DNA of 64,000 nt from Trichinella spiralis (GCF_000181795.1 NW_003526944.1:4620479-4684478), one strand, 5' to 3'. Positions 640-47,248 are shown, numbered from the stretch's first letter. A program made the numbers and translations. Notes: generated by a model not told the origin, from the sequence alone.

Positions 640-3600
640 GATATTGAAAAACAAATTTAATACAGTTTACACAAAATATACAATCACAGATGTTTATTTT
701 AAACAAAATTCCAGCAAACAATGATTTATATAGAAATCTGATAAAACAACTGTTTTCTAAATTTGATATTTATAGAAGGAACAAATACTACATTGCATCA
801 AAATTTCATTCCTATCTGTTCATTTTGACTAATTCTCATTTCAGAAGCCACCTAATCAAAGAAATTACGTTTAAAACATTTTAAGGCTTACGAATGCTCT
901 AAGCGATAAAACCAGGAACAAATGTTATTTGAAGAAAATACCTCTTCGTTCGATTCTTTAAACATTTGAGATAAATCTTCACGAAATCATTTTACTTGCA
1001 TACTTATTTATACTATATATTTTATTTCTCTTCTTTAGATTCGCACTAATATCGCATACTTCTGCTATCGCTGCTTTTCGTAAAATGGCCAAAAATTATT
1101 TGTCATAATTTCTGCTTTCTTTGAATGCTGGTTGCTTACAATAATGAATGATGGTGTTATGGAGAGTTTCAGCGGAAATTGCCCTGTAATTGTAAAATAA
1201 ATGCTTCTAAAGTTAGCACATTGTGCCTAGTTTAATACTTAGGAATGTCGTCCATCTGAAAATTCCACGAAACAGAACTAAGATGCGTGATTTGGGCATT
1301 TGATGAAAGTGGGCATTGAAAATGAACAACTTGGTGCAATATTTCACTTGTTTGGGAATTCCATTTTTCCTTCATTATCAGCCCGTAATGATTGCTTCGA
1401 TGGAATTTGTTTCAAAACAAGCTGAAATGGAAATATATACTTCAACGTGCTGGTTTCTGTTTGTTTATTTTTTCGTTATGCTAATATTTGTTGATTTTTC
1501 AACTTATTTACCATCAACATTGATTAATACCTGATTGTCATAACGTACGCCTTGAATGTCTCAATTGTTTGAAAAAACAGTTACTACATGGAATATAATG
1601 CTGTTTATGACTATTACTATACAATTAGTCCAAACTTGTCTCTTTTTGAATTAATTTTTTATTTTTAGTTGTAGCTGATTAACACATTTGAAAATGTGGT
1701 TTTAATGTAGTAGGTTACGATAACAAATGTATAGAAGAGTAATGAAAGTAAATAAATTAACAACTGATCACAACTAAATGCCAAAATGTATATTTCCCAA
1801 TCTTTTGAGATATTTACTTAGAATTTTAATAAAAGTAATGGGATATTGTTAGGAAAGCGCAGCGTAATTGCATTTGTAATAATTGAAAGACTAAAAAAGA
1901 AGTACTGTGCAGGACTGACGTCCATAAATTTGTAATAACACGCAGTCGCTGATTTTTTGAAAGATTTTATAAAACAAATAGTTTTCAAATATCACATTTA
2001 TAGACGTAACAAATGTAACATGATATAAAAATTAAATTCCCATCTCGTCATGTTGACTTATTCTCATTTCAGAAGCGCAATGAAAGAAATTACGTTTAAA
2101 AAATTTCAAAGTTTAAGAATGCTGTAAACGATAAAGAACAGTCAAGAACAAAGTTTCTTTGTTGAAGATACTTATCTTGGCTGAATTCTGTTACCGTTTG
2201 CGAGAAATCTTCGCAAAAGCATTTTCTTTGTATACTTATTTATTCTGTATATTTTATTACCTCTCGTTTTCTTCCCACCTAATATCCCATTTAGGTTCCG
2301 GTTTCAAAGTAATAACTCGACAAATAGTGAAGTAAAGACATTTGAATAGAATAGACAAACAGTTTGGCCACGTTCGCTGTTGTTTTCTAATTTGTTCTGA
2401 TCGATTTTGTACTTTTCGAAGGGAATCATTTAATCAAAAATTTTCTAAATTTCACGGGCTGTAGCTTTTGGAATTTCATGAATAACTGCTTGAATTTTAC
2501 GAATAACGCTCTTGAAAATTTTGAATTTTTTGATTGAACAAAATTTCCTATATTTTTTAATTTTGAGCAATCCAATTTTTCTTCACATAGATTCATAAAC
2601 AACAATAGGTTTATGATGAAGTTTCCATGAGTTTTTAAATCTACATTCGAAAATGGATAGATCTACATTCAATAATATACCATTTAATTTGAATAAAAAG
2701 TAATAACTTTCATATATAAGTAAATATTGGCTTTGTAACTATGTCATTATGCTATTACTGACTAAAACTGAAATCATTCCACCACAAGCTATGGCACATT
2801 CTACTTCCTCAGACTTCAGCTTGACCCACTTTCAAGAATGTTATCCCAATGGTTATTCAGTTTATTAGTGTGTAAAATAGCCATCATGAAGCGCGTTCAA
2901 CTCTCCTCAGTATCATCTACAATTACAGGGTAGGTTACGTTTTATTACTGAGCTCCCTATCTGATTATGTTTGAATGACTTCAATCAACCTCTTACCTCT
3001 TAGTCAGAAATTAAGTGTGAACATTATTATGTAAGCTAAATGTGCATATCTTTTCAATAATATGCAGTGACTGATTAAATGTATAAGCTAGTAAACTTAT
3101 TAGATAGGAAATTTCAAATTTACAGTAGAAATAATGTAATTTACGATGAATATTCTTGTCCAATTTTGTTATTTTGAGTAATTCTTAAATCTGCAGACCA
3201 ATCCATCAATAAAATTTTGAAAAATGAAAATTAAAGTTTGAGTGATGCAGTAATCTCTAAACAAAAATGGGGAATATGTTATTCAAATTTGAAAATATTT
3301 TTGGTGAAAACTTTAAATGTTTTTATGTAAAGTTCAGCGTAATGACTTTCTATGCATGCTTATATATTTATTTCATTTTATTTTTCTTCATTTTATTCCC
3401 ACTAATATCGCATTTCTCGGACTTCACTGTATTGCGAAAAAAGGCCAAAAATGTTTTCTTCGAAATTACTACTTTTCTTGAATGGTGGATATTCAGAATA
3501 TTAAAGATGGCGTTATAGAGAATTTCAGTGAAAATTGACAAGTAGTTTTGGAAAAAATGGCCTCTGAACTTTGCGCATTCCATCTATCTTAATACACATA

Positions 3601-4670
3601 ATACGTTAATACTTGCGCAATCTTATTAATCTGAATACAACTTCATACAGGAACGTTGCACATCTGTAACCACAGCGAAATGGAACCAGGATGCATGATC
3701 TTCAGCGAATGTAGCATTTCTGACACTTGTGTGAGCTATGCATTCAACTTGTGCTGCCTTGTTCAGTATTTTGCTTGTTTGCACAATCCATTTTTCCTTC
3801 ATTTTCTGCCGGTTTTGATTAATTTGTTGAACGTTGTTTTAGAATAATCTGAAACGGAAAAAAATACTTCAACATTCTCATTCTCTATTAATTTATCTTT
3901 TTATAATGCTTGATTGAAATGAATTTTAAAGTTTATCTTCCTTCAACATGGATTAATCCCTGAATGTCAAAACGTACGTCTTGATTGTCTGAATTTGTTC
4001 GAAAAATTATCATTTCAATTAATAAGATATAGTGGATGGTTTTTAGTATTCAATTAGCTTCTTATTGATACCAAACATGTCCTTCTTTGAATTCTGTTTC
4101 GCTTTTCAATTCTAGCTATATGCCGCATGTGAAAATGTGCTTTTACTGTGGCACTTTGCGATACCAATTGTATGAAATTGTAATAAAAGTAAATAAATTA
4201 AGAATTCATCACAACTAAGTGTGCCCCTTCATGGTATTTTTTTCAATAGTTTGAGATATTTACTGTTCAGTAAACGTAATGGAATGTTACTATAAAAGGG
4301 CAACGAATTCATTATTGCAATTGTATATTATATGAAATTATATGAAAACAGTATTGCGATCACAAATTTTGAATAATATGCAATCCATGAGTTTATGCGA
4401 AATCTGATAAAACAACTGGTTTTCAAGTTTTACATTTGTGAAACGGATAAATGCAATATTGCATAAAATTTGCATTCCCATTTCTTCATTTTGAATAATT
4501 ATCATTTCAGAACTGCAATTAATCAAAGAAATTACGTTTAAAAAATTTAAAGGTTTAAGAATGCTGTAATCGTTAAAGAAAAGTCAGGAACAAATTTTAT
4601 TTATTTTTGAAACCTTTTTCGATCAGTTCTTTATCTTTCTCAGAGACAACTTAACAAAACGCATTTCCTA
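640..4670 (-). pseudogene. Decayed tandem array of about three copies of an unidentified multi-exon gene
   Basis: Block TCATTTCAGAA...AAAGAAATTACGTTTAAAA...GAATGCT recurs at ~835-900, ~2060-2125 and ~4500-4565, and ~1000-1880 aligns with ~3350-4330. Minus-strand exon-like pieces are homologous (LAILRKAAIAEVCDIS vs LAFFRNTVKSEKCDIS) but carry stops and frameshifts. Confidence 0.5.
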
Positions 4671-5400
4671 TTATAGGGACGACTGAACTACACAAGTGTA
4701 TTTGATTCCGGGTCTAGTAACCATTTCTCCCAGTGAAGACCGTCTAGTGGTTATCATCGAAATTTCATTGGTTGTCCCGTAGATAAATTTCATTGGCTGC
4801 GTTGCCCAGAGTAGCGACTGCTTAACTCTAATTTTCCTATGCTAACAGGGCATGTAAGGCACATTCTTTATGCAAATTCGTCAGCGAACACCATGTTTCA
4901 GTTCAATAAAGTTTACTGGGGTACATCAGAGCAGCAACCAATGAAATACAGGGGAATGAAGTAGACAGAGTTCTTTGGGGAAATCATCTCTACCCCTCCC
5001 GACCTATTACCCCACTTTGAAGGGCTTCAATTGCGCCTTCTCCGTTCTCACCAACATTCGAGACTATCACTAATTCTTTCTTTCTATCGTTGCTGTATTT
5101 TACGAGTCCGATCTTTCTAGTCCTTCACGTTCACGACATTTGTTGATACGTGAGTGATCTTGATATGATGCTGTCTCTTCGTAATATTGACGACGCTGGA
5201 CACTTCTTAAATAAATTGATCACAACGACGGCATAAGTACCAACTCTCAATATTGACAACCTGGAATTATGGCTCATCCACCTCGAAAACTTTCACTTCC
5301 AGCAAGTCGTTGGTGAGGTTTGAAAGCTGCACCTGTCACTTAGCGCGATGCCTGAAGAAGCAGCCTGCGAGTTCCAGGACTTTCTCCTGATCGCTTGATT
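4671..5400 (+). mobile_element. Decayed LTR retrotransposon 5' end: LTR-like segment plus gag N-terminal remnant (Ty3/Gypsy-like)
   Basis: GC-richer insert that truncates the third tandem copy. AATAAA then ...TACA at ~4905-4925. ~5237-5397 reads VPTLNIDNLELWLIHLENF...*KLHLSLSAMPEEAACEFQDFL, resembling the Gypsy gag N-terminus (P-F...LWF...E..F...K...LP...DLL). 4800-4880 resembles 19040-19118. Confidence 0.5.
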
Positions 5401-6874
5401 TCTGTGGTACTGATTCACCCGTGAGCTTTGTGCGGTGCCCATCGCTCTTTAACCATTTTAAGGACGTATTTCCAAAAGACAGTTTTGTTTTACATGAACA
5501 CAGCATACAAAGCATAAAAAGGAAATAAAGAAGATGAAATGAAGAAAAGTGAAAAAATTCTATAATTATTTAGTTAAAGTATACTTCAAAAAAAATCAGA
5601 GAAAGAATTAATAATTGAAAACACAGTATATGTATTACTTAAATTGCTAAATTATCGAAAAGAATTTTACTAAGTAATTCACACATGAGATTGTGGCACA
5701 TTATATCCATAGTTATTATTTTATTTCACTGATGTTCCATTAATGATGGGGGCGAGTAATTAAGGTGCAAGAGTAAAAATGTGCATTCAGGTAAAAATGT
5801 AGTACTGAAAATTATTCTCCTGATGCTTTGCTATGAATGCATGCAAGTTTAAGTATATTTAAGAATTTTACAGTCTGAAGATGCGCAGAACTTAAAATAC
5901 TTTTGAAACAAAATTCTCAATTACATATAATTGAACGTTGACATTTTGTAAAAATGCATATTTCAATTGATATTTCGCGTAATTGTCTAGATGTAACTGT
6001 AGAATTCAATTAGAGGTATTCAATTTGCATTTGCATAAGGCATTCAATTTCATTCTCTACTGTAATGGTCAAATATGACTAAGAGCATTGTGTTTTCCAT
6101 TATGGAAAACAAAAAATACCGTTTTTTATACAGAAATTATTTAATTTTATTCTCACTTCATGTTGCTTTTGAAGTTTTATATCATTAGGACATTACATAA
6201 ATCAACATTTTCATCCAGCTACCTTTGCGTGTCAGAGGGTGCAACCAACGCAAGCAATGGGCACAGTGTGCACACTTATTGCTTATATTGTGTTGACATT
6301 ATGTTCAAATTCATCATTTGGTAGCATATTCAACTTACTTAAGCAGGCTTTTAACGTTGCATGCGCCATGTCTGAGATTTATGCAAATAGGGGCCGTTTG
6401 AAAATTGCCTTCATATTAACCATTCACAAGGTATATTGACTTTGTAAACTGAAAGCAGCGTTGAACAACATTTGCCCAGTTCATTTGCGCATTATGCAAT
6501 GACGAAGGCATGTTCCTAGATATAGAAAATGTTATCTTTTGAAACAAAGGCGTGGTGCAGTTTCAACTAAAATTAGCATGCAATTTCAATTTGTTTGCTT
6601 TTGAGCTTATGCGTGACCATCATAATATTTGTTCAACAAAATGAGAATTAGTTTCATACATATTATTAGATAGGAATGAACTTTATGTAAATTTTCCTGT
6701 GGCTACTATTAGTTGCTCTAGAAACTCATTTCAAATGATTGTAGGCGAACGAGGTGCGGCGAATGAACAATGGCGCTTTCAATGCAATGACAGACGAAGA
6801 AAACCATTAAAAATGGCTTTGTTTTTTTATTTATTATAACATTATTTCATTAAATTAATTCTTCTACATTTAGA

Positions 6875-9800
6875 TACAGAAGAATAGAAGATAAAAGAAG
6901 ACATCCCAAAGACAAGGGTAAGTTAGGTAAGTATAATTCTTTGAGTTAGTCTAATTAGTTAAACTTCACTGAGGAGTTCTTGAGTCTGTAATTTATATAA
7001 ATTCGAGCTGTAAGTTATCGAGCATGATTGTTTGTTAATTAGAGTAATTGGATGTAGATCATGAGTATTATTATAATTAATTTGAGTGGCTTTCCGCATT
7101 TGAACGTTTTCATGTCCCATGCCTTTTGAGTTGAGTTTAGGGTTCATTTGCGGAAAGAGAAATGGTTGAATAATTTGTCGATCATTTCAAAGGACAATTT
7201 TTGAGCATAGTGAGTTTGTAGCACTGCTATAGTTTGAGTATTAGAATAAGTAATTGCTTGAGAATAGCAGTGCAAGGATAGGAGGAATGTGAGATAGGGT
7301 GGTGTGCAGGAGTTCGACGGGTTACACTGCACGACGCGACCCTAACCGTATCAAATGATCAAAGTCCATATTTTCAAAGCTCACCTCTTCCTCTCCCGGT
7401 TGCGGTACCAGAGGCCTGCCGCCTTGCTCGGATCCCAGCAATGGGATCTCAAGCAAGGTTTTTTTTCAGCCCGGCCGCCCCCGCGCCGCCCCCCGCCCTC
7501 CTGCCCGTTAACGGGGACTTCCCTCGGCGGAGTCTCCTAGTCCCGTGCTGGCCAGAGACCGGTTTTAAAGAGATGACCCTGTCCATTTGTGTGGAAATGG
7601 ACGTTGTTTGAAATCTTGTGCAATGGGATTTCAACACCTATGTGAATTCGTAAGACGTATCTGTCCTAGAGGCAGTTATGCAAATTCGCAATTGACGTAG
7701 TGCTGAGACTCTGTTTCAGTGCCAATCTAGTGGTGATCGTTACTCCCCCAAGAGGAACGGTAAGCGTCGCTATGCGTTTGTGTTATTGTTACGCCGGCTC
7801 TGACACTTGGCCAATGATTGACATCAGATTTGCCGTCACACCTTTAACTAGTTCATTTGGCGTTGCACCTTTCATCAGTTTAGGCATAATACATTTGAAA
7901 TTAATCTCCGTTGAGAGTTTCCCCATATAATCATGCTAAATAGTTAAAATCTGTTAAAAATTTCTACATTAATTTTTTCATTTAGGAACTTAAATGATAA
8001 ATAAAATATAATGTTCATTCATCTTATAATTGGGCAATTTCACTTTATGTTTACATTGCACTGTTTTAAAGTAGAAAAGTTTATCAGTTTTTCATTTACA
8101 TTAAATCATATAAAAGATTTTAATTATTCATTAATTTCATACTGATAATAATATATTTTTAGTGTAAAGCAGTTTTTTACTTTAAACAATGTAATGTAAA
8201 AGTAGATTTCTACTTTAAAACAGTGCAATTTAAACGGTTAAGAGGGGTGCAATATAGTAAACAATAAATTAACAATAATATATTTATTAATTATTGATGA
8301 ATTAGCTATTGTTTGAATATAAATTTTTTACTTATAAAATGTTAATCGGGGTCTCCTTTAATTAGGTAATGGGAAAAGTAAACTTGGTATAAATGAAATA
8401 AACAATTAGCTTAGGCAAGGTGCAACGAGTTTAATCATTTTATAAATAGGAAGTAATCTTCTATAAATAGAATGTTATTAATCCGTAACATGTAGGAAAA
8501 CAATGTATTAAATGAGATTAATTTTAATATGCTAATTAGAAAGTTTAAAAGGCAACGTAAATGCAACACTGAGTATTTTAATTTTTAATTAGGTTAAATA
8601 ACGTCACTCGTAACTGCATATTTTAGCAGTGAGAGTTTTTTAATTAATGATTAACATACAATGTAAACACAAAAGTGGGTCATAATATTTCTAATTAAGT
8701 ATAATGACATCACTCGTAACTACATATTTCAGCAGGGATATTTAGTAGTTAATTAGAGGGTTTTAATTGCAAGCAAAAAACAGCAACTTACAGTAGTCAG
8801 ATTTATTCGAAAAGATAAGTAGGCATAATACATTAAATCAATAATGATGAGTTGTAAATCATACGGTAAGTATGCAAACATGAGTTGGTTCTGCAGGACA
8901 GTACATTAATATTGAGTATCAGGTGTGACGGCAATTTGATGTGCATGAGGCGGCAAGGCTTTGTAGGCGTAACGGTTCACATCTGCCTAGCAACGCACGC
9001 CATCTGGTGCGGAAGCTACGTCTTCGGCGGATCAGAATGGCCATCTGGTCCGTCGAGGGTGGATCAGATGGATCCACCCAAGGTCATCTCGGCCAAAATC
9101 GTGAGGCCAGCACGTGGGCTAGGAGGCGATGATGCCTTGGGGGTCCCCGGGGCAGGAGGGCGGGGGGCGGCGCGGGGGCGGTCGGGCTGACCGAAAGGCA
9201 GGCCTCCACCGCAACCGAAAACTTTTTTTTAAAAAAAATTCACAAAAAAAAGCAACCTTCCCCCCCGCTGAATCGACGAAAACGCGAAATCTCCCCCACC
9301 CTCACGATTTTTTCATGNNNNNNNNNNNNNNNNNNNNNNNNNNNNNNNNNNNNNNNNNNNNNNNNNNNNNNNNNNNNNNNNNNNNNNNNNNNNNNNNNNN
9401 NNNNGGAAGGGAGCTTCACGCTCCAGGATGGGGCCCATTTTTGGTCTCTCCATCCTCCACCTGCATTAAATATTTCAAGTCCCATTTCCGGCATGTTTGC
9501 CATTTCGCAGAACTCATTTATGCCAGACTTTATCTGTTTGTTTGTATTACATTGCACATTTATCTTTTTTTTTGAAAAATAAACTTTTTCATTAATAAAG
9601 AATTGTTGTTGTTGTTGCATTGCTCTTGGTTTATATTAAAAGAAAAAAATTTTTTTTCTTACTTTTAAATAGATTATTAATTTACATGTATTACGTGTAT
9701 TATTTCATTTTCCCCCATTTTAACTGTTTTGTTTTTGTTCCTATAAACTAATTAATATTGCTGGCTGGCAACTAGTAATGGCAAACATGATTTTTCCCTT

Positions 9801-10070
9801 TTTAACTAATCCTACATGAGCATCATCGTTAAGAAATAACGCAGTATTGGTCTTTTGTTACGTCTGTGTATTGTGTCTTTGTAATGAAGAAGCTTTCCAC
9901 ACTCGACTTTGCCAAATCGTATCTATCTTCTCCAACTTGCCTATACTTACCTTACTTGACCAACGAACGCAATTGACCAACATACGCAACTGACCAACAA
10001 AAAATTCGATCCAACCTATCCATATCTGATTACCAATCTTGGTTTTCTCCACTTGTCTTCTTTCTTCTCC
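6875..10070 (+). ncRNA. Putative very large structured RNA (or single-stranded foldback element), unclassified
   Basis: Nested long-range helices: 6894-6903/10054-10063, 6920-6935/9942-9957, 7397-7406/9208-9217, 7466-7506/9150-9190 (41 bp, one G-U), 7830-7843/8921-8934, 7846-7856/8880-8890, 7861-7871/8417-8427, 8055-8077/8207-8229. Many local hairpins; mismatches mostly G-U in + sense; GCAA, GAAA and cUUCGg loops; no credible ORF. Confidence 0.6.
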
Positions 10071-10649
10071 ATGTGCATTATTTTCCATGGTTTATTACGT
10101 GTTTACTTATTTGTATGCAATGCTTTTCATGTGTCAGAGGTTTTACAGAGTCAAACTCAAAAAGAATCAGAGAAAAAATATTTGGAGAAATAAATTGAAA
10201 AAAAACAATAAAATGTATGATATAAGAGGAAAAAAAGAGAAAATAAAAAAATCAGAAGAAATAATGGGAGAAGTTCAAAAATCGATAAAATGTATAAAAT
10301 AAAGAACGGAAAAATAATGTTTGAATAAATGGGAAAAAGTTTGAAAAATATCAATAAAATAAATTTGTTTAAATTGTTTTGAAATTTGTTTCGAAAACTG
10401 TTAGAAATCAAATTAAATGTAAAATGCAGAAACAAAAAAAGCCAAAATTAAAAATTATTTCGACACATGAAAAGCAGTTGCATACATAAATTTTGCTGCG
10501 TGAAAGACCAAGTACTGCATTAATTCAAAACTCAGCCATGTAGGTTGGTCGTTAACTTAATTACAACTATGGGATAACTTCGCCCTTTCGAAGTATCCCA
10601 ATCCCAGACCTACAGAANTGGGGTCCCCAGGAANTTTGNCTTCTCTTGN

Positions 10650-10756
10650 TCTGCTTCGTGTCGTCCTCGATCTGCTTCGTGTCGTCCGCGATTCGTTTCG
10701 TGCCCTCCGTGATCTGCTTCGTGTGGTCCCTCGATCTGCTNTCATGTCGTCCGCGT
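10650..10756. repeat. Minisatellite with ~21-bp unit GATCTGCTTCGTGTCGTCCTC, about 5 copies
   Basis: Directly visible tandem units; reads TTRSRSR repeats on the - strand; low-quality N-containing region. Confidence 0.8.
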
Positions 10757-12241
10757 TTTCACGTTTTCTTTTCTTTATTGGTCACATCTGTAANAATGCT
10801 AATTGATAAATCAAAAATTCTTCCCGCNTTTATCACATTTCANTTTANTTTGAAAAAGGNAGTTGAAATGCACAANTTATAGTNNCANCCCAATGAGGAC
10901 TATGTNAAAATTCNGGAATGACCTTAACANTTTAAAATNTCAGTCAAGATATNAAGCTATNCCGATANGAACGCTATNAANCAAAAANCACTGACNTTAG
11001 TNGNAAAACACGCCCTTCCGCATGGTCTGAAATTTCATATTTGCAAAAATTCNAAAAATNGNCCTACANNAAANNGGNAAATCNNNCCGCNAAAATGNTT
11101 TCNNTNAAAATATNAAGCACNCTCGNNGNGTANGNTGACAAACAAAGTTAACCGAACAAAAGATGTAATTTACCAAATGGCTCTGATGCTGTGAAATTTG
11201 AAAAAATAATTTAAAGTGAAAATAAAGTTAATTAATTTTCAATCTTTCTAAAGATGAAGTCATATCTAGTCTTAATATGAAAATTAAAAAGAACAGTTTT
11301 ACAGTGAAAAATATCTCACTCATATACTGTATACTACAAGCTTGAATAATTTCATTAAACTAAGGAATAACTTCACCCTTACGAAATATCATTAGCCGTG
11401 CTTCACAGAATCACAAGAAATCGCATTTACCTCTTCTGTTCTCTTCTCTTATTCTGCTTCGTGTCGTCCGTGTTTTCACATTTTCTTTGCTCCATTCATT
11501 AAACCTGTAATAATGATATTAAATCAAAAGTGTTCTCACTTTATCACAAAGTAGAATTACAAATAATATAATAATTAACTGCTATTTAATTAAAAAGAAA
11601 TTGTTTACAAAATGAGTATACAAAGTTTTAAAAAAATAACAAGCAGAAAAGTGGAATACTTGTCTGTAAATCTGAAACGGCCTTCAGCAGCTACTTAACG
11701 CCCGTAATGAACTGAGAGAACGTTCAACGAAGCTACCAATTGCCACGTAAATTAAACAAACAAACGCAACCTTACTGATGATAAGGCAGCGTTATAGCGA
11801 TCCTTATTTGCATAGTGTAGCGTTAGAAACCGGTTTTTAGTGCGTTAGAACTTTTGGCTGAAGATAAAAGCTAAACTAAGCCGCGTTACAATATGAGCAA
11901 AAGAAATGCTCTTCTAAATTCTACCAATAAGGAAAGGACTATTTAAAAATTCAAAAATGACCTTGACATTTACATTTTAGTCAAAATATAAACTATGGAA
12001 CAAAAAACGCCATAACAAAACAAAATTCACTTAGACAAAACACTTACGTATGTCTGAAAATTTTCTTAAGTTTTTATTCAAAGCTAATTTTAAGTGAACA
12101 ATTTGTGTGCAAAAGCTTGCTCGAGTCAGTTGAACGTCCATGTTAGCTAGTGCAATAGTAATTTTCGAATGACCATATTTTAATATTAGGCAAACAAAGC
12201 ATACAGGGTGTATTAAATCAAACTCAAGTGTACGGAAATTT

Positions 12242-13276
12242 GGCGTTTATTAAGTCACTTATCATCTCATGTTGAGAATTCAGAGAAAATATACTGAGAA
12301 AATATGCTCAATATCGATTCTCAATTGCATTGTCAATTGATTTCGAATTATAAATGAAAAAAACTGCCACTTACCGCAAAATGCGTCATCTTCTCAATGA
12401 TGATCTTCATGCACTTTGGATGTTGATTAAAAAATTATTTTTCAGAAATTATTCCAAAAAATAATAATGAATAAAAAGCAAATTTATTATTTGTGATTTG
12501 ATATTGGTCTTCAGTTAATTTTCCAATCCAAACGCAGTGCTTCTATCCACGGACGGCCTCAAACTAAAATTATTTCCAATATGTCAACAAAGCGAACGTC
12601 CTAGCATGCAAATTTTTATTCCATTCGTTTCTGCTGATAAATATGGCTACTGTATATTTTTCATTGCCCTTCATTTTCTTAACTGATGCACACTGTTTGA
12701 GGAGAAAATTTTGAAACAAAGTAATTTAATGACAGTTATTTCNNNNNNNNNNGCGTTTATTAAGTCACTTATCATCTCATGTTGAGAATTCAGAGAAAAT
12801 ATACTGAGAAAAATATGCTCAATATCGATTCTCAAATGCATTGTCAAGTGATTACGACTTATTAAATGAAAAAAAACTACCCACTTACCGCAAAATGCGT
12901 CATCTTTCTCAAATGATGATCTTTCATGCACTTTGGGATGTTGATTAAAAAAATTATTTTTCAGAAAATTATTCCAAAAAAATAATAATGAAATAAAAAA
13001 GCAAATTTTATTATTTGTGATTTGATATTTGGTCTTCAGTTAATTTTTCCCAATCCCAAACGCAGTGCTTTCTATACACGGGACGGGCCTCAAACTAAAA
13101 ATATTTTCCAATATGTCACCAAGGGGAACGTCCTTGCCAGCCAATTTTTTATTCCATTGGTTTCTGCTGATAAATAGGGCTACCTGTATATTTTTCATTG
13201 CCCTTCATTTTCTTAACTGATGCACACTGTTTGAGGAGAAAATTTTGAAACAAAGTAATTTAATGACAGTTATTTC
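12242..13276. repeat. ~500-bp direct duplication across an N-gap (probable assembly artefact)
   Basis: 12242-12742 is repeated at 12753-13276, differing mainly in homopolymer length, with 10 Ns between the copies. Confidence 0.75.
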
Positions 13277-16154
13277 AAAATTCAAAAATGACAGTGACAT
13301 TTAAAATAAAGTCAAAATATAAACTATCTGACAAAAAACGCCATAATAGAACCATTGTCTTAGCCAAAACAAAACGCATGTCTTAAGTTTGGATTTGAAT
13401 ATTCAAAAATGACCTACAAAAATGGAACTTATCGAAAAAAGTTTTTCACCAAAATATATAAGCACACTGCTTTTCTGTGCTGAAAACAGAATGAAGCAGA
13501 CAAAAAATGTAATTTAGCAAATTTCTCTGATGTTACAAAATTAAAAAAATAATACAGTAAAACGATAATGAAGGTAAGCAAACTTCTTGTGTGAAAAAAA
13601 TCCGCTGGAATACGTTCCGTCGAACTTAACAAAGCAGCGGTTCATCGGCAGTGTGAAAACTGCTCCTCAGCAGGCTTAACAAGCCTTTATCGTGCAATAG
13701 TGCACCATCGAGCAAGACAACCTTCAGTGGAATACGAACAAGCGGACGTTTCCACTGCCAATTAATATGAAATAATTATTCTATTCATAATAAACGCTGC
13801 ACATTATTACTATTATTTCTGCCATTTATTTTTTATTTTGAATTCATATTTTTGAATACAACAGATTTAAAAGAGAAATGTTTATCAAAAAATCAATTTT
13901 GTAATCGAAATGAAAACGACAGGAGGAAACTGATGACGATTTGAGCATTTCAAAGCTTCAGAATGCTACCAGCAGTTGTGACATCTGCTGTTCAAACCTG
14001 ATTTATATACGCAACTATTGATGAAAATGCCATACAACATATGCAAATTTGAAAATAGCAATCTAACAACATAGACGAAATATAGATATAATAAGTGAAA
14101 ACAGTGGGTGCTGAGTATTTTGGCATTTTCAACAAATCCGAACCGGAAATTATTTGGATTCTTTCAGTTTATGGACGATCGTTTTCATAGTACACTGAAG
14201 CAAAAAGAAAACAATCACGTAAATAATAAACATAACTTTAAAAAACAAATATTTGTTAAAAAATGAATTTAAAAAAAAATCAATTTAAATTCTCATTCAT
14301 TTTCGATCAATGCAATCAGTCTGATGGAATTCATCTATTTGGGATGTTGTGGAAAAGATGCCATCATTGTGATGATGCATTTGGCTTTTCTGGCCCATGT
14401 TCACGTAGCATAGCAGACAGCCTTTACACTTTGGTGCATCAGTACCAAATATGTTGGCAATTTGATATTGCTCTGCATACGAGTGGGCGCAGGACAGCAA
14501 ATCAACCACCAATAAAATAATAAAGAACAAGCAAAAGTTTCCACTGCAATTTGTGATTTTTATATTTAATATGAAGCCAAAATGCTATTATTACTGCCAT
14601 TCATATTTTTATTTCAAATCTCTTTGTTTGAATACAGCATTTTGAAAAATGAAATATTTATCAAAAAATGAATTTTGTTATCAAAATTTAAATTTACGTG
14701 CAGTATGAAATAAAAATACTGCATTCTATTATTATTAGCATAGGATTCTTGCTGTTCTGTGTGAAGCTTTTCTGAAAAGCTTAAAAACGTAAAGCGCCTG
14801 CTATACTGCAGCATGAAAATGAAAATATTTCATTTTATCATTTACATATATGATTTTTGAAATTTTCTGCATGAAATTTATTTGAAAAGTTGTAAAAGAA
14901 TGGGGTGGGGTGTCCGTTGGTCGTCAATTTCAGTGCAACTTCTTCGTTATCACTCATCAATTAGTAGAGCACTTGCAATGTTGATTGCAATCTGGATTAC
15001 GGAAAACATCTTAACAGGTCGTCTATTTGGGTACCGGCGCTACACAAATCGACACATCAACCATCAGTGGAGTACGAACATGCGGACGTCTCCACTGCCG
15101 ATTGAAATAAAACATTTTTTCTATTTATAATTAGGAATATACAAATTATTGTAGCCATTTTATCTTTTATTTTCAACCTCTTTGCTTAAAATTTTGCATT
15201 TTTATTTAAATAATTACCATTTAGATCATTAGGCTTTAGTTTCAATGGTTTCAGTTCAAAGAACAGCAAAATTTATAGTTCTGTTCATGTATTTTTCAGC
15301 AATATTAAAAAATAAAGTTTTCTCAAAATTGTATTACTTTACCTGAATACATTCAGAAATGAAGTTCAAATACATCCGAACCATTGATGACGACATATTC
15401 GTTGTGATTATGTTAATTAAATTTCCATTGTTTGATATAAATCTTTCAACAATGTGCATATAATAAAATCAAGAAAGTGGCATGGGAGATTATTTTTCAA
15501 TTTCACAAATGTAAATTTTCAAATTCGCTATTAACAACATCAAATATTCATATAATTATTGTTCTTGAAAATTGATTTTGTAATACAGACTCCCTACAGT
15601 TGAAAATTTTTGTTTTCCAACTTTGATTCAAACTGAACAATTTATTATGAAATGAAACCGAATATGCGTTGTTAATTTCATTGTTTTGATGCGTCATTAA
15701 AAATTATTCATTTCCATCAATATAAATTATATTAAAAGTTTGTCTACAAAACTGCTGCGTCGAATAATAAAAAAAAAGAATTAATTAAAATTGACACTTG
15801 CTTAATATCAGTAAAATATGATTGAATGATTGAACAATTTTACAATGTGCTTATGCTTCGTTTTTTAATATGCTTACACTTTGAATGTGAGAAACATGGC
15901 AATGGGATGTTAAAGAACATTTCTACCAATTCGATTGATTGTAATTGAATATTATATAAATTTTTAATTAAATAATATTGTCCTGTTAATTTCTTCATTT
16001 CAATATGAACAGTTTAGATATTTGTTTGTCAGTTACTTCGAAATATGGATTCAAACAATCCATCGCCCTAACAGTAATTATCGTGGCAAAAAAAATGTCT
16101 GCCAGTTTACTGGATATGCACATTTTCACATTAAGTCAAAAACCTGAATTACTC

Positions 16155-16290
16155 TTTCCGGATGATGAATAGCTGTTCGGATGTGTCGAATTCCAAATCT
16201 ATCTACGAATAATCTCTTAAAATTCCTGAGAAACAAAAAATATTGCATCGTCTGTGACAATGATCTCTGGCAGGCCATGTTTCGCAATTT
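16155..16290 (-). mobile_element. Ty3/Gypsy integrase core remnant
   Basis: Minus strand reads KHGLPEIIVTDDAIFFVSQEF*E... and FGIRHIRTAIHHPE, matching the rve pattern GLPxxIVSDNG..F.S.EF...GI.H..T.PYHP. Contains stops and a frameshift. Confidence 0.7.
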
Positions 16291-18929
16291 CACACTGCAT
16301 TATTTCAAATCTCAACCATACAGGTTTGTCCTTAGCTTAATTCAACTGGTGGATCACTTCATCGTTTCGAAGTATCCTCATACCAGACCTACAAAATAGG
16401 GACCCACGGGAGACCCTGTATACCTTTTGTTTTCCATTTCTGCTTCATGTCGCCCGCATCTTCATTATTTTTCGAATCGATTAAAATACGAAACATAAAA
16501 TCAAATGCTCACCTTCCTAAGCAGTAAAAATTGTAAATATTATGTTAATTTTAAAATCATATCCTCAAAAATAACCTATTATTGCTTTTCAATTAAACGG
16601 AGAGTTCACAAAATTGAATCATTACAGACTCAACATCCACTTGTCATTTATAATTTGAAGTTATAACGATCACGTGAAAAAGAATGCGACTTCTCATCAT
16701 TGAACTCCACCTCGTTCTTCCACTGCAATGATAAATCATAATTAATAACTTACTAATAATTGAAATAAAGTAGAACAAAAATCATATCTGCTTCGTGGAT
16801 GCTCATCCCGCTTTTCAGTGCTTGCTCATCCTTGTTCAGTCACCGCACATCGTAGCCCTATTATTTTCNNNNNNNNNNNNNNNNNNNNNNNNNNNNNNNN
16901 NNNNNNNNNNNNNNNNNNNNNNNNNNNNNNNNNNNNNNNNNNNNNNNNNNNNNNNNNNNNNNNNNNNNNNNNNNNNTCTGCTTCGGTGGATGCTTCATCC
17001 CCGCTTTTTCAGTGCTTGCTCATCCTTGTTCAGTCACCGCACATCGTTAGCCTATAATTTCTTGAAATGTAACTCACCGATTGACCGCAACTGAATAAAG
17101 ATATTACATAGCCACGTCAGCAGAACAAACTCAGAACTCTGCTACTGATAATGGCAGTGTTTAGAGGAAAGCTGATTTACATAATTAAAAAACAACCTTA
17201 ACATATTGTTATTCAACCTGTTTGTTTGAATGCAACATATTAAAAAAAGAAATATCAAAAAATTAATTTTACAATGAAAATTTCAATTTACGTGCAGCAT
17301 GAAAATAAAAATGTTTCATTTTATCATTTACATATATGATTTTTGCAATTTTCCGTATGAAATTTATTTAAAAAATTTGAACTGATAAGAATGCCTACTG
17401 ATACTCACCAGAGAGTGCAGTCAAAGTCTCACTGAACGTTGACTTTCACCAACCTCCTTGGTGAGCACAACTCATCAGCGGTACCCAAAGTGACACATCA
17501 ACCATCAGTGGAATACGAACATGCAGACGTCTCCACTGCCTATTGCTATAAAATATTTTTTGTATTTATAATTAAATATACAAACTATCATTGCCATTTA
17601 TTTTTTTATTTTAAACATTATGTTTGTTTAGAATTTTATAATATTTTTATTCAAATACTTCCCATTTATATATATTGAAATTCTTTACTTTCGTAATTGA
17701 AATGATTAATATCATAAAAGCACAGCTTTGTTTTTGATAAAACCTTTTTTATAAATAAAAGTGTGAAAATAATAAAACTACAATATCGAAATGCTTGAAA
17801 GGAAAATTTATATATACGTTGCTGACTAATGTATTGCTTTAAATTAATAAAATTATAAGAGAAAAATTTGCACAAAAAGAAATTATTTTTGTCTCCATAT
17901 TAGATCATATTTCGACTATATTATTAGATAATGTTACAAATACATTTTATTAAAATGCTATTCCATAGTTTCTTGCCTCAGTTTAACTCTTTTATTTCTC
18001 CTGATTGCACCACATGTCATGAAGAATATTAATCTGCAACAATTGAATTTCAATTAATTTATGCAAATTTTGAATATCAAAAGAATAATTTACATTCAGT
18101 CGTATTTGTTTCAGAAATATCAAGTGATTTTGATTTTCAAAAAAATTTTATAAAATATAATACGGTTAAAGTAGTTATATGTTAAATGAATAAGAGGCTC
18201 TAAGCAACGCTGATTTGCATAGTACACGCGTAGCCTTTTTGGTTAATTATTTACAAAATGATTATACAACGCTTTGAACGGCCTCAAACTAAAATCCAAT
18301 TTGTCAATAAAGCAAACGAACTCGCATGCAAATTTTTATTTTATTCATTTCTCCTGATGAATAAGACTAGTAGTGGCACATTTTTCATTGCGCTTTATTT
18401 ACTTAACTAATGCACTGTGTTTGTGGAGAAAATTCTGTTCCAGCCATGACAAACATAAAAGCAATTCGCATTGCGGAAACACAAATTTCATCTTCATTAC
18501 AAAATATATTTTAATTATTAAAACTTAGATAAATACAAGAAATGAACTGCATAATCATTTTATATTAAATGCTGGCTTGTTGAAAGAAGTGAGAAAGAGT
18601 AATAATTTGAAGAAGTAATTCACACAGAGTGACAAATTGAACAATCAATAACAGTTATTTGAAAATTCAAAAATGACCTTGACATTTAAAATCCAGTCAA
18701 AATATAAACTATCTGACAAAAAACGTCATAACAAAAACATTGTCTTAGCCAAAACACGCCTCCGCATGTCTTGGAATTTCAAATTCAAAAATGACCTACA
18801 AAAATGGAACTAACTCACTGCAAAAAATCTAAAGTATATGGCTGCGCATTCTGACAAACAAAATTAACCAGAGCAAATATCTCTGATGACGTTGAATAAA
18901 ATATTAATATAAAATGATAATAAATAACT

Positions 18930-19120
18930 CTCGGAGTAGTACCGATTTCCCGCCAACCAAGTCGCCTACTTTTCCCACGTAAATTTCATTCGTTATCGTG
19001 CAGCTAAAATTCAATGGTTGTCAGTCTGATGGGATTAGGTTGCCCAGAGAAAGATCTGCTTAACTCTTAATTGTCTTAGCTAACAAGACACGTCGGGGAC
19101 AATCACTATGCAAATTCATG
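18930..19120 (+). mobile_element. LTR-like repeat related to 4700-4880
   Basis: Shares GTTGCCCAGA...CTGCTTAACTCT...GCTAACA...TATGCAAATTC, in the same order, with 4800-4880. Confidence 0.5.
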
Positions 19121-20519
19121 AAAAGTGTGCAACCTGTACTACGTGGGGATACCGTTCCTGGCGTCGTTGTGTTTTACGTTGAATTATGAACAAAAATCGA
19201 AAATGAAATGCACAAAATCACAGATATTAATACGGATGGTTGTACGGTTTCCACGGGGAAAGAGTACTGATGAATTATGACGCACGCTTCACGTACAACT
19301 ATTTGAAAACAAGCCTGAAAGCAAGCAAATGACATTTGGATACAAAGTTGCATTATGCTGCATTTTAAAGATTATTAAACATAACAGCCATTTTCAATTA
19401 GAATATTAATTACACAACTGGAGCAAAGAGAGTGAGGTAATATGCACATAACAACAACAGATAGCACAACGTACCCTGTTCGACGTCATTAATATTACTA
19501 ATTTCTACGAATTCATTGTTTAATTAACGTAGCAATCAGTTTTTGATATTTCGCTTTTGATAACAAAATGGAAATGATGGCAGAAAATAAAAGTAAAAAA
19601 CAGTTACAAAACAATAACATTTACTGGAAACGTCAGCATAATGAATGAATAGTTTTATGTAATGCCACGCACATGTAATGTGCAGTGATACGTCAGTGAA
19701 ACGTGAGAACCTTTCAAATGTTTTATTTTAAGCAAACACAATACAATGTTCACACATACAATGATCGGCTATTATTAAAAGATAATTACACAGCGCACAA
19801 ATACTGCAAATCAAAGGTTGAAAATTTAATACATCCTCCCTGGCTGGCAGTGGAGGAACTCCATTTACAATCTCGGCTTCAATTAACGTCTTCTTCTTTA
19901 GACGCCTAATTGCACACGTCTGATGGTTGTGTTCACGGCCTTCATCTTACCATCCTTGAATGGATTTGTCGTACTGCTCTCACTTTCTTCGGATTTTTCA
20001 TCCACAGCGTGATGTTAGCGACGTTCCGAAGAAAACGATACTCGTTGAATCACACATCACGATGGCTTGCGAACCCACAACCAACGTTTCCATTAGCTTC
20101 AAACCAACCACTTGCGGTAATTAAAAGGTAGGATCCGTACTCTGGATTTTTTTTAACAATAAATGTTTGCAGAAAGAAAACCATAATCCGGAACTGGTAC
20201 GCAGCTAAAGCAGATCAGTAGTGGATAACAGCTGATTTTGCTAGAGACGAGTTTTGTTTTCATAATAGCAACCATTTTTTCAAACTGTTAATTGTATTCA
20301 GCTGTTTAAAAACGGCACAGCTATCCAGGTCCTTGCCTTAAAAAGCTTTCCAATTGCAAGTGACAGACGGTACTTTTTTGTCATGGTAAATAATCTGCAA
20401 AGTTCTTTCATCGCCGGTGCTTCGACTTTTCTTTCTCAATCTGATGGTAACATCTCAAATGTTCTTGATTTTCATAGAATTCTTTTTTTCACGTTGTGAG
20501 TTGAAGTTCCAGTTTTGTT

Positions 20520-21312
20520 GTATCGCAAGAAAAACGCCTCAGGCCACTTGAACGTTAACTGTACATTGTATGTGGTGTGATTCGTACGTTGCCTCTGAGA
20601 TTCCTGGGAAATCCATTCTCACACGCTATGAAAATTATTCTACCAATTCTGTTTGCACAACAACATTCACATGGAGGTTCACACCTTGTAGGAGTCTTGC
20701 AAAGTAGCTATCGTTTTAGCTGGAACACTCCTTAACCCGAACGGCATGACTTTAAATTAGTACAACCCGAATTAAGTCAGAGACAACGTCAGCCTCGTTG
20801 AACTTGGTTGTAGCTTTCACCAAAGCCAGTTACATTCAGAACTGGGACATATATAGTCAGTAGTTTTGTCTGCAACGCATCAGACTCCGCTATCGTGTCG
20901 TCTAGCTTGTCGAACACTCTGCTGTTGTATCGCTGGTTCCTTCTAGTTAAGCGTCACCAGAAACCACTGGCAACTTGGAATACCGTTAATTCTGAGGAAT
21001 ATTTCAAACGCTTTTAGCCGGGATCACGTTCGGTGCTTGATGTAAATAACGCTGGTTGATGCCAATATAGAGCAGGAAGATCGCTTCTCAAACAGGCCCG
21101 CAATTACAACGCGCCTCTCGCTCGGTGACGCAATTCGATTCGTTAATCTTGACCAGTGCTTCTGGAGGGTCTTCTTCTTCAGCTTCTCGATGAAACATTA
21201 GTGATACACTATTTAGTATCAATCTAGCACAAATACCAGTAACACACGCACACAGCCTGTGCTACTCGCAAATCAACCTCTATCCATTCATATGTGAACA
21301 CATCTATTTACA
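20520..21312 (-). mobile_element. Deleted Ty3/Gypsy element: LTR (21041-21312) plus RT and integrase fragments
   Basis: 272-bp segment bounded by the inverted ends TGTAAATA...TATTTACA. On the - strand ~20770-20720 reads GLY*FKVMPFGLRSVPA (RT motif) and ~20555-20528 reads TFKWPEAFFL (integrase SKWPEA motif). Confidence 0.75.
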
Positions 21313-22053
21313 TCCACGTACATACCGACTGCATAATGATTTTCAGGTGCCATAAAATATACGGTACTTTTTTATAATTGCAATTACATTTCATTTAGTT
21401 GTAACTTCCCGAAATAGAATGGTGTTTTTAGGATTATAAACAAAGAAAGAAAAGAAAAGAAAAAATAACAAACAGTACACCCCAGCATGATGACCAAATC
21501 CTTTTCCACCAGCTACCACCAAATATAAATTATTTATAGCAGAAGAATACTGTATGTTTTGACTCATAGGTTCCTATTGGAGTTATACATTTTACTATTA
21601 TACAACAGCAAAATTTTAAAGTGGTTTATTTATTACTAAAAGACAAAAATTAAAGCAAAATAAACGAAAAAGCAGAATTTTTTTCAGTGTTTTTCTAACT
21701 TGTGAGAGAAAATTTTTTCAAAATGAAAACTGCCTTTTAAATTGGCTTCTACCGATTCTTAGCAACGATATTTTTGCCATCCGATCAAACTGTTGATGAT
21801 TGTTTTACCAGGCAATTGAGTTTTTTACAATTGTAAAAAAACCACTTCATTTCTCATTCAGTTGAAATTCTTGTTTTATTCTTTATTTTAAAAAAGCTTG
21901 TTTTTCAATTAAAATTACAGTAAATGGTGAAGTTGATTTTATCAGTACTTTGAAAGAACTATTCGTGAAGCAAGTTCGCGAACGCAATAATTAACAATTA
22001 TAAATCGAAGATATATTAATTTCCAAGAGCAGCATAATTCATTTACAAATCAA

Positions 22054-23952
22054 ATGAAAAGTTGTGAAGCAATTATTTTTACAGCTCATTTCACTTTTGC
22101 ACTTATTCAATGCGTGGGAAGTTCTGAATTGAAATTAATTTTTACACAAGTGGTAGGTGAAAAGTTCATATGAAAAAAAATCTGATCTTTCACTAATTAT
22201 CGCATTATGCATTATTTTATTGCGAATAATGAATGTCATTCTTTGCCAGTATCAATTTATAATTTTGTTCATTATAGAATTGAATATGATTGAGTGAATT
22301 ATTTAAAATTTTGAAAATTTATGTATTTAAGGTTTTTCTTTTTCTAATCTATACATGAAAAAAAATACATAATTAATGATTTCAAATGCTTGCTTTGTTG
22401 ATAATATATTATCAAACAACGAACCAATGTTCAGCTTTACCGCCACGGTGAACGTACCCCACTCAGCACTTACCCGAATGATCCGTATAAAGAAGACGCC
22501 TGGCCAAATGGATTCAAACAATTGACAGTGGTGAGTGAATTTCATTTAAATAATTTTTTAATGATAAAAAGTAAAAAATGAAAAAACTCGCATTTTTCAA
22601 GGAAGGTTGTCGCCAGCAGTACGAACTTGGAAACTTTCTACGTAGAAAATATTCAAAATTGCTTTCAAAATCGTACAAATCGCACGAAGTATGAAATTAT
22701 AATTATTATTATTATTATTATTAATTAGTTTTTTCTTTTCAATTTTAAATTTCCCCCGTTTGAGATTTATGTACGCTCAACGAACACCAGCAGGACGTTG
22801 GCAAGCGCTGCTTGCAATTTGGCCGGCCTATATCGAAACTTTCAACCAGAACCAAATCCCATTCACACAGTACCAGAAGAAGAGGATTTTGTAGTCAACA
22901 TATCGATTATACATTGATGAATGAATTGCAAAGAAAAAATAATCTGCTTTATTTAAGCTTCTCAGAACAGGCTTACCATGTCCTGGTTATGATTTGGCGT
23001 TTAAGAAAGATTCACGAAAAGTGTTCTCGAAAATTGACAAAGCTAATGAAGATTTTTTCAAATTTGTCTCAAAAATGTCCGGCATTCGCGATGCTAGTAC
23101 AAAAAACATAGGAAGGCTGGTTGGTGCTTTGGAACGTGAAATTAGAAACAACTTCATCATGCCGGATTGGATTTTCGCAGTTTGGTGGGATCCAACGATG
23201 GGCAAGTATCGAACAGTCTACGAGATGTTGTACGACATCAATTCTGTCCGACAATTGACCAAATTCAACTCGAAGAAAAAAGCCCGTTATCAGTCAGGTA
23301 AATAAATTAATAAATTATTTCATGATCAATTTTCAAATGAAAATTTCAACTTTCAAATAATAATAATGAAACTTTGTTCTTGAAAATGTTGATTAATTAT
23401 GAATTTTTTCAATCAGTATAATAATTATCATCAAATTGAATGGATTTTTTAAAAAATAATTGATTAATTATTCTTTTTTAATTCATTATCACGCATGAAT
23501 TTTATTAGGTTTCCTCATTGGAACATTGATGAAAAATATGAAGAGAAAAGTGGACAATTTTAAAAAAGAATCCAAAAAAATGAACATGTACTCAACGGTA
23601 AGTGTTGCTTCTTCGACATGATATAGTCGGTTGTAGCTGGGGTCATTTTCCTTTAATTATTCGTTTAATTTAGCACGACGGCACTGTGATGAGTTTAATG
23701 TACGCTTTGGGAATTGGAAACGACATCAATCCGCCAGTTGGATCTTGCATCATGTTTGATTTGTACAAAAATTCCCACACTGATCGTTTCTACGTGGAAA
23801 TTCAATTCAGAAATGATACCAAAGAACGGCCAATTTCGTTGATCTTACCAAAATGTATGCTTAAATTGTGTCCATTGGAAAAAGTTTACAAAATTTTCCA
23901 AAAAATATCCTTCGATCACGTATCTGAACGAAATGAATTTTGTTCGAAATGA
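22054..23952 (+). CDS. Secreted or lysosomal histidine acid phosphatase (7 exons)
   Basis: Spliced reading [42 protein letters not shown]... (RHGxRxP motif), [24 protein letters not shown] (HD motif); signal-like N-terminus; GT-AG introns. Confidence 0.93.
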
Positions 23953-25993: not shown

Positions 25994-27132
25994 TTAGCCA
26001 ATATAAATACCTTTGGATTTATCACTGATTGTGAAGAGGCGATTGAGCGGCTTTACCCGAAGTAGAAACGATTTCGCTTGGCCCGTTAAGTCCGGATGTA
26101 CGCAGATGTAGAAGAGACAGGTGATTGGAAAGAAGCAGTGCTGCAAAATGCGTCCCCAATAAAATGTGTACAAATATCTCGAATTCACCTTCCAGCACAA
26201 CAGGATGGTCGGTATCAGCTGCAAAAAGACAGTGCAGAGGATGAAGCCGCTCAAGCTGCGCAGTGTGGACCGTTGGTGGGATCGTTGGAAGCTTTTCAAA
26301 CCGGAGTTCACTTTCAAATTCCTCGCGCGAACAAACGCCATGTATGCGAACAAGGAGAACAAAGCGCTCATAAACCAGAAACAAATACGCAAAATTGTCA
26401 GTATCAAAAAACATCTCGGTGTGATGACTTCGATGAAAAAACACTTGGAGCGGATTTTGTGATTCGAGTCTTGCTGAAGCGAACAAATCAGATATACGAC
26501 CAACTGCATCCCGGCCAAAAGGCAGACAAGCGACAACAGTCTGCATGTTGATTTGTAAGAGAAAAGACGATCGTACAGTCTGCCAGCAGAGAAGAACAAC
26601 CACCGTTCAAAGGACAACAGCAGAACCACCATTGTGGTGGCGTCGATGCCGAATGTCTGAGGGATGAAGTAAAAATTCAACACGATACACTTCCAAGCTT
26701 CTGTCATGGAAGAAGCCCCAGTGGAGACGTCGAAATAGCGACGCAGAAGTGAAAATGCTGATCCGAAAGCGAAGCATATGCTAGCGAAAGAAAATCCTAG
26801 AAAATTTTTTCAAAATTTCACTTCAACATACAATCAGAAGTACAAGTGAAGCAAATTTTGTATTATTTTTACAAAATATTCGAGCTCACTGTAGTTCGGA
26901 TGATTGAATTCAAGTAGAAATAAAAATCCACAATAAAATTACCTTTTAATAAAACAAGATCAGCTCGTCGTCCGTTACGTTTGTAAATAAAGTGAAGCAT
27001 CAGTGCGCTCAAGATGACCGTGATTATGCTGTTGACAATGCCAAAGATTAGCATAAAGTCCGCGTAAGCGTAGTTGACTTCAGCAGATTGTGCTGCAGAA
27101 ATTTCTTTCTTGTTGAACGTTTCGTTGGACAT
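25994..27132 (-). CDS. 7TM rhodopsin-class / chemoreceptor-like GPCR, paralog 1 (exons 27132-26943, 26796-25994)
   Basis: About seven hydrophobic segments, LSFERW (DRY-equivalent), TM7 YICVHPD, C-terminus KGIYIG. Confidence 0.85.
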
Positions 27133-46513: not shown

Positions 46514-47248
46514 TCAATGATGCGTGTTGTAAAGAAGCATGCGCAGCTTTTCCAATTCGCCACGAAGCATGGACAGTTCGGTACGCAGTTGTAAATTTTC
46601 TTGTTCCAAATAGACGACACGCAGTGCAATTTGTTCCTCTTTCATGCGTCTGGATTCACGGGAACGTCTGGCCGATTCGTTGTTCCGCTTCCTACGTTCC
46701 CAGTAATTGTTGTCTTTCATATGTTCCGGCACAGGTTCGGCTTTTTTCTTCGGCGTCGTGGGCGTGGTGCTGTGGGCCGGAAACGACAGCGCCACCGGAC
46801 CTCCGCCCCCGCCACCGCCATTGGTGATGGTGGTGGTGGCCAGGACTGTCGTCGACGGCTGACTGAATACCGTCGGCATTTGGACAGTATACGACGAAGG
46901 TGTGGCCGGCATGGTCGGCCCCACCCCGGTCGGCGCTGTGGTCGAAACCACGTTGCCGGTGGTCGTGGGCCCGCCACTACCGTTGACCAGAGACCCGCCG
47001 CGCCCGTTCGCCGCCCCACCCTGTTGCGCCGCTGCGGCCGCCGCCAACGCGCTCGCCTGAGTGTAAGCTGCGTACATGCTTGTCGGATTCGAAGGGTCGA
47101 AGCCAGCCGCGGACGGCCAGTACAAGCTGGACATGGCCATGTTGGCAGCGTAATTTTTCAAAGCTTTGTTCGGATCAAAACTGCCGGTCGAATGGTTACC
47201 ATTCGACGGCTGTTGTTGTTGCTGTTGCTGTTGTTCAACTGTTGTCAT
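46514..47248 (-). CDS. PAR-family bZIP transcription factor (CES-2/TEF/Pdp1/giant-like)
   Basis: PVPEHMKDNNYWERRKRNNESARRSRESRR basic region plus leucine zipper; Q/A/G/T-rich N-terminus; an upstream exon is possible. Confidence 0.9.
   Translation of the reverse strand: MTTVEQQQQQQQQPSNGNHSTGSFDPNKALKNYAANMAMSSLYWPSAAGFDPSNPTSMYAAYTQASALAAAAAAQQGGAANGRGGSLVNGSGGPTTTGNVVSTTAPTGVGPTMPATPSSYTVQMPTVFSQPSTTVLATTTITNGGGGGGGPVALSFPAHSTTPTTPKKKAEPVPEHMKDNNYWERRKRNNESARRSRESRRMKEEQIALRVVYLEQENLQLRTELSMLRGELEKLRMLLYNTHH

Follow-up and report, generated by a model that had tools for sequence, protein, structure and literature searches.

Several described systems share features with the repeat analysed here. 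As described in PMC7215508, the LARDs (Sukkula) and TRIM/Cassandra elements of plants are multicopy and non-coding, have structured RNAs and use enzymes supplied in trans, as we posit for the Trichinella spiralis element, but the latter has no flanking LTRs in the intervals searched, resides in an animal and has a non-LTR body whose ends are predicted to pair with each other. Retrozymes, which are LTR elements in plants and non-LTR elements in animals, are likewise presented as non-autonomous, highly self-paired, non-coding repeats (PMC7229834); they are given as 170–400 or ~700 nt long with hammerheads, whereas the Trichinella element exceeds 3 kb and has no hammerhead core in its sequenced part. 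DINE-1/HINE Helentrons resemble it in being ORF-less, in their internal tandem repeats and in having no target duplication (PMC4067079), but their 12–15 bp subterminal inverted repeats were not found in the element, and a kilobase nested fold is not among the DINE-1/HINE features listed in that source. The telomeric repeats of Meloidogyne, a genus lacking TTAGGC, are composite, stranded and G4-forming according to PMC10844300; these are terminal arrays, whereas the Trichinella copy is embedded.

Within Trichinella, ~7.7% of the assemblies is reported as unclassified dispersed repeat (PMC4740406), and a 1.6-kb T. spiralis repeat, X06625, is described as a high-copy diagnostic target that cross-reacts across Trichinella species (PMC6432754). 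The present unit is at least 3.7 kb long with EcoRI sites at 6002 and 7644 (gap excluded) and, compared by description only, may be or overlap X06625; if the two were identical, the sequence would already be known and the fold would still be new. A literature search that was not by sequence, and that missed older subscription papers, found no description of the element. We report an unusual, real fold in an unclassified high-copy Trichinella repeat, located in a stretch of 64,000 nt of T. spiralis DNA (the window).

Anatomy and predicted fold of the repeated unit

An earlier note on this DNA had described positions 6875–10070 as an ORF-less segment folding into one giant nested structure on the + strand. 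The repeated unit extends beyond this fold on both sides, and comprises the following features (X1, X2 and so on denote sequencing runs; pairing values are predictions).

6450–6875, no strand assigned: left-hand section of the unit, flanking the fold; in X1 and X2, summed depth climbs from hundreds to thousands over 6467–6828
6878–6935, +: 5' closing strands; pair probabilities up to 0.84–0.94 with 9935–10068
7090–7396, +: four tidy hairpin domains; z -3.5 on +, -2.9 on -
7128–7318, +: core common to diverged relatives, within the four-hairpin region
7397–9217, +: nested 1.8-kb arm; -680 kcal/mol (block shuffles, about -492); 356 pairs with p>0.9
7466–7506, +: 5' strand of a 41-bp GC stem; partner 9150–9190, 98% complementary, p ~1
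7828–8900, +: AT-rich apical part, varying among copies; internal repeats of 27, 33 and ~106 nt
9139–9190, +: 3' strand of the GC stem with a G-quadruplex-type motif
9318–9404, no strand assigned: assembly gap; true length at least 239 nt, not 87
9405–9800, +: 3' domains 9425/9456 and 9492/9789; z -3.7; p ~1 and 0.35, respectively
9935–10068, +: 3' closing strands; 17-nt repeat of variable number at 9956–10001
10070–10525, +: long hairpin around a purine-rich spacer of varying length, beyond the limits drawn in the earlier note
10514–11240, no strand assigned: right-hand modules; depth high again at 10449–10610

The true left and right ends of the unit are undefined, and the right flank runs into N-rich sequence. 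On the left, 6727–6770 has an inverted copy (82%) at 17026–17069, and part of the family diverges directly behind 6892, as indicated by loose ends in X1 and X6. The hairpin at 7221–7273 contains a G.U run that is absent on the - strand. Certain family members carry an additional repeat copy in the apical part (joint 8653 to 8578). One contig holds 239 unplaced letters ahead of 9405, and the gap is likely a short tandem repeat, since loose ends resemble the sequence on both of its edges. The right-hand hairpin (z -3.6 on +, -0.9 on -) is formed by a 24-nt inverted match, 10112–10135/10462–10486, around a purine-rich stretch at 10140–10455, and joints omit 112–238 nt of this spacer. The right-hand modules recur in decayed form at 11347–12062, 13262–13586, 16294–16411 and 18656–18792. 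As the earlier note held, no credible ORF is present: only three of 101–148 aa occur, within the GC stem and gap, and exact protein look-up matched 0 of the 3.

Thermodynamic modelling indicates that the large nested fold is real and far beyond chance. The minimum free energy (MFE) of 6875–10070 is -984 kcal/mol on the + strand and -898 on the -, against -747 to -784 (+) and -702 to -741 (-) for shuffles in 100-nt blocks (n=4); these whole-fold figures are approximate, because the gap measures at least 239 nt instead of 87. The arm (7395–9220) alone reaches -680, as against -452 to -466 for full shuffles (n=5) and -477 to -503 for block shuffles (n=5), and its excess over shuffles is -188 where ten equally long control tiles range from -26 to +17. 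This signal does not come from the 41-bp GC stem alone, as the inner arm 7780–8980 still gives z -6.7. Scores in 200-nt windows are blind to the fold because its pairing is long-range. High pair probabilities (0.88–1.0) are assigned to the main helices 7397/9217, 7411/9206, 7466/9190 (the 41-bp stem) and 7159/7188 as well as to the hairpin 7221/7273.

The nesting described earlier is thus borne out, but several of its structural details are not. The ends are indeed predicted to pair, at probabilities up to 0.84–0.94, but in the shifted registers 6886/10061, 6915/9953 and 6924/9943; the two registers originally proposed reach only 0.06 and 0.16. The helix given as an example of + strand G-U pairing, AACTAGTTCAT/ATGAGTTGGTT (7846/8890), has p=0, as does closure of the 6961–7218 domain in the one register tried (6962/7217). 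Of the three tetraloops named, GCAA at 7438 is a loop in the model, but UUCG at 9022 and GAAA at 9193 are mostly paired, and the tetraloop argument mostly fails.

The closing helix 6915–6935/9942–9961 also holds two perfect 5' splice-site-like words (GGTAAGT), whose partner stretch resembles the 5' end of U1 snRNA; this pairing may be a mere consequence of the inverted repeat.

Strand asymmetry, copy number and divergence

The argument for an RNA rested on an excess of G-U over A-C deviations on the + strand. Counting G-U within an RNA fold is circular, so strand-neutral tests were used instead, and these uphold a moderate bias only: two of four counts are non-significant and one is too small. 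In the flanks of Watson–Crick helices that both strands share, there are 23 G.T against 8 A.C (p 0.011 by binomial test and 0.05 by permutation with local composition), an excess seen in none of 5 control tiles. Neither of the strand-neutral counts in stems, 8:6 and 50:33 (p 0.08), was significant, and the count of 1x1/2x2 mismatches, 4:1, is too small to test. At p>0.9 there are 356 pairs on the + strand and 242 on the -, and the energy gap between strands is 86, as against 37–60 in shuffles (n=4). The AT-rich arm 7780–8980 has no + preference (z -6.7 on + versus -7.6 on -). The + bias is real but moderate, and is located in 6940–7400 and 10060–10530. An excess of G.T over A.C cannot tell RNA from single-stranded DNA.

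The stretch is present in 20 of 24 sequencing runs under four organism labels, and no run is recorded as RNA. Depth and variants were analysed in four of the 24 (X1, X2, X6 and X7), with organisms C and D outside this set. Summed depth in X1 and X2 climbs from 6–440 left of 6466 to 5,000–31,000 over the element, falls only at the purine-rich spacer and recovers at 10449–10610. Within X1, unique-looking flank contigs have depth 9–12 and the element a summed depth of 5,000–27,000; single contigs of X6 have depth 1,075–1,763 over the element against 4–27 for flank contigs. A depth drop at 6467–6647 in X6 comes from a single study. Summed depth is itself not a copy number, but these figures point to at least tens of copies and likely hundreds. 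At ~300 copies of 4 kb, the family would make up ~2% of the genome, and it is a possible high-copy diagnostic target. X6, which is no more than guessed to be RNA, is uninformative on expression because its ratio of element to flank depth is like that of the DNA runs.

The copies are also diverged, as 90 of 221 pieces in X7 and 187 of 498 in X6 (flanks included) are less than 95% identical. Given this family of many, diverged copies, the very large non-coding RNA proposed earlier does not fit if taken as single-copy. Divergence in X7 is ~1% at 7079–7886 and 9405–9648 and 6–8% at 7857–8208 (7–8% within this apical stretch) and 9796–10162; contigs of both X6 and X7 show 0–1 differences across 9405–9648. 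Divergence thus follows anatomy in X7, the paired GC-rich base being conserved and the AT-rich tip with its minisatellites variable, and relatives differ in the number of their internal repeats. X1 and X2 alone carry homopolymer deletions, with none in X6 or X7, so part of the variation in X1 and X2 is likely read error. An excess of A>G in X1 (46 versus 33 T>C) was considered as RNA editing and rejected as too small.

Forty of 412 variants were listed with their positions, 18 of them inside the fold and 13 on MFE-paired sites, where 11 break the pair and two keep it (partner assumed unchanged). Because most of these break pairs, the fine structure of the AT-rich part is untrustworthy. Among the listed variants in or beside p>0.9 helices of the arm, four of six keep or improve pairing (8226, 8230, 8236, 8975) and two break it (7595, 8437), which is at most consistent with selection on the high-confidence predicted helices.

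One way to account for such a family is a stray rDNA spacer, intergenic or external transcribed, that folds within pre-rRNA. Spacers of this kind typically occur in many copies, contain subrepeats and long GC helices, and fold on one strand; the presence of the element under four organism labels would fit as well. However, the 64 kb contain no rRNA fragments despite several decayed unit pieces nearby, ~40% of the pieces fall below 95% identity, and the subfamilies differ in their bodies; we regard this origin as very unlikely.

The most diverged relatives bear on a further explanation, in which the repeat is a multicopy functional non-coding RNA gene (a hairpin-RNA or miRNA precursor, or a scaffold RNA) spread by segmental duplication and not by its own mobility. 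Two records, of 1,773 nt (X6) and 1,056 nt (X2), match at ~88% and only at 7128–7318, so that what diverged relatives keep lies within the four clean hairpins of 7090–7396, a region in which the summed DNA depth of X1 also peaks (7191–7371). The 1,773-nt relative has depth 242 and the similar 1,056-nt record a single-copy depth of 16, although their organism labels differ and they perhaps represent different loci. T. spiralis is described as having Dicer-made RNAs of 23–25 nt and many lineage-specific miRNAs (PMC4323106, PMC3212509), and RNA from the element is a candidate Dicer substrate. No Rfam match supports such a gene, however, and high copy number with decayed fragments nearby is parasite-like; we consider it distinctly unlikely.

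Class tests and the preferred explanation

By sequence criteria, the segment fails the tests for LTR, TIR, SINE, retrozyme, Helentron and spliced-leader RNA, and for any Rfam family. As previously noted by inspection, known RNA motifs are missing: Rfam gave no match at gathering score over the whole 64 kb, ribozymes included, and E-value scans gave only sub-threshold hits (best E 0.56). No direct repeats of 12 nt or longer connect 6300–6900 with 10070–11400, and local alignments there are at null level, a result that applies to a unit of undefined ends and possibly to a truncated copy. Hammerhead-core patterns occur 12 times in the window and not once within the sequenced part of 6400–10700 (gap excluded); the unit, at more than 3.2 kb, also fails the size criterion of retrozyme monomers (170–700 nt). 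Inverted matching of left and right flanks gives z 0.3 for a TIR, with a weak indirect TIR-like link via the copy at 16977 (z 3.3 and 9.0). Target duplications are absent beyond 7 nt. There is no SINE head, as judged by tRNA genes (0 found), a B box (none) and Rfam (no match), and A or T runs of 10 or more are absent.

Several other candidates were rejected. Spliced-leader RNA was dismissed since 0 of 8 AAG/GT sites have an Sm motif within 20–60 nt, and none of the 15 leaders in PMC7986045 shows likeness by eye. The Sm-like site at 7196 is partly paired in the model, and 1.4 such sites are expected per 3.2-kb strand. A mitochondrial control region was set aside on its GC/CpG-rich stems, the absence of mitochondrial gene pieces and the heterogeneity of the copies. 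Telomerase RNA was discarded on size, the element lying above the 200–500 nt given for animal telomerase RNAs (PMC12921731). Homologue searches returned, for one 21-nt pattern in metagenomes, two loci matching the pattern itself only; viral contigs, searched with two patterns, and prokaryote genomes, searched with one, gave no match, and blastn against plasmids gave only matches of 3–4% coverage in AT-rich sequence.

One alternative is a non-autonomous DNA element, either rolling-circle (Helitron/Helentron-type) or foldback, in which the folding molecule would be a single-stranded DNA intermediate. It would account for minisatellites of variable number, for modules that are reassorted between subfamilies and strewn over the neighbourhood, and for the missing target duplication; HINE/DINE-1 elements are described with central repeats and without target duplication (PMC4067079), and under DNA energy parameters the inner arm 7780–8980 still folds well beyond chance (z -6.7 on +, -9.1 on -). 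Yet inverted matches of at least 12 nt are absent between the flanks, whose ends are uncertain, where HINE subterminal inverted repeats span 12–15 bp, and the G.U runs and + bias are better suited to RNA. A Helitron 3' end consists of a hairpin followed by CTRR; this pattern has 13 matches in the window, none near the flanks, of which the right one may end in N-rich sequence, and two inside the element on the - strand. We judge this explanation unlikely, though worth keeping in view.

That the element is the composite repeat of Trichinella telomeres or subtelomeres, lengthened via an RNA copy, appears highly improbable. The element is composite and stranded with a G-quadruplex motif (two of the three such motifs in the window are the two GC-stem strands) and sits in a mosaic of decayed repeats, but here it is one embedded copy and forms no array. 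Counts of TTAGGC are given as 0 in 10 of 12 Trichinella data sets and 3–6 in the other two, with no motif settled (PMC10760449). The element is a candidate in the genus's unsettled telomere maintenance. Telomerase is inferred to be lost in Trichinellidae in PMC10844300, whereas PMC5405514 reports a TERT of T. spiralis in which all 11 motifs are present. A TTAGGG-type template-like 9-mer, ACCCTAACC, lies at 7339 (+), but six of its nine positions are paired in the model; a further template-like word, GCCTAAGC, lies at 8416 (-). TTAGGG-type words of opposite sense occur at 7133–7146 and 7339–7347, in and beside the core, and could pair with each other.

The repeat is multi-copy and non-coding, with a fold beyond chance, a conserved base, a variable tip and diverged subfamilies. 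A dispersed, diverged multi-copy family requires a copying route, and a kilobase fold on one strand of a non-coding sequence points to an intermediate that is single-stranded and in which the fold is selected. We therefore favour, tentatively, a protein-free, non-autonomous mobile element copied via its folded RNA. The + strand would be transcribed, and the fold would compact the RNA and join its ends. The machinery of an autonomous retroelement, a putative partner, would then package and copy the end-joined RNA through a borrowed reverse transcriptase, and this copying would hold the fold under selection. Such mobility would resemble the action of a LARD interior; LARD identity itself is not claimed. 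The earlier suggestion of a non-autonomous retroelement or structured RNA replicon agrees with a many-copied, non-coding segment that favours the + strand, but none of the supporting features turned up, be it an LTR, a primer site, a ribozyme, a poly(A) tail or a target duplication. If copying via folded RNA is correct, the range of animal non-autonomous elements would broaden to include a non-coding one of several kilobases that has neither LTRs nor a ribozyme and is maintained by its fold. A bolder version, which we hold to be distinctly doubtful, is an animal class of giant LTR-free, ribozyme-free structured-RNA parasites: viroid-like RNAs of 3–4 kb, in hundreds of copies, whose fold alone would recruit a host or retroelement polymerase and which may double as chromosome-end repeats.

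Setting of the element in the window

The first 21 kb of the window contain few genes and many decayed repeat modules. Positions 714–4669 hold decayed tandem duplications of 70–78% identity (1334–2227/3761–4669; 722–1057/1950–2290/4380–4602), and 4801–4879 is similar to 19039–19117. By eye, we take 4700–5500 and 19000–21300 to be broken Ty3/Gypsy-like remnants; the element resembles none of the retroelement-like remnants in other parts of the window. Depth at 5200–5380 is 92 in X6 and at single-copy level in X1. To the right of the fold, 10514–18811 is pieced together from five or more decayed repeat modules present in several copies, and the word TCTGCTTCR occurs seven times on the + strand within 10650–16977. 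Direct repeats of 90–92% flank N gaps at 12243–12742/12753–13276 and 16787–16866/16977–17060, and are likely unmerged contig overlaps.

Beyond this region, a spliced histidine-phosphatase-like gene lies at 21700–23952 (+), with a weak PF00328 match in its last exon. Two hydrophobic ORFs of ~270 aa at 25994–26809 and 29398–30204 (-) have no Pfam matches and, judged by eye, look akin to each other and to receptors; further ORFs in the window match animal Pfam families. The ORF at 46514–47248 places the window in Trichinella: its bZIP product shares 83% identity with a protein of Trichinella pseudospiralis and 53% with Trichuris proteins.
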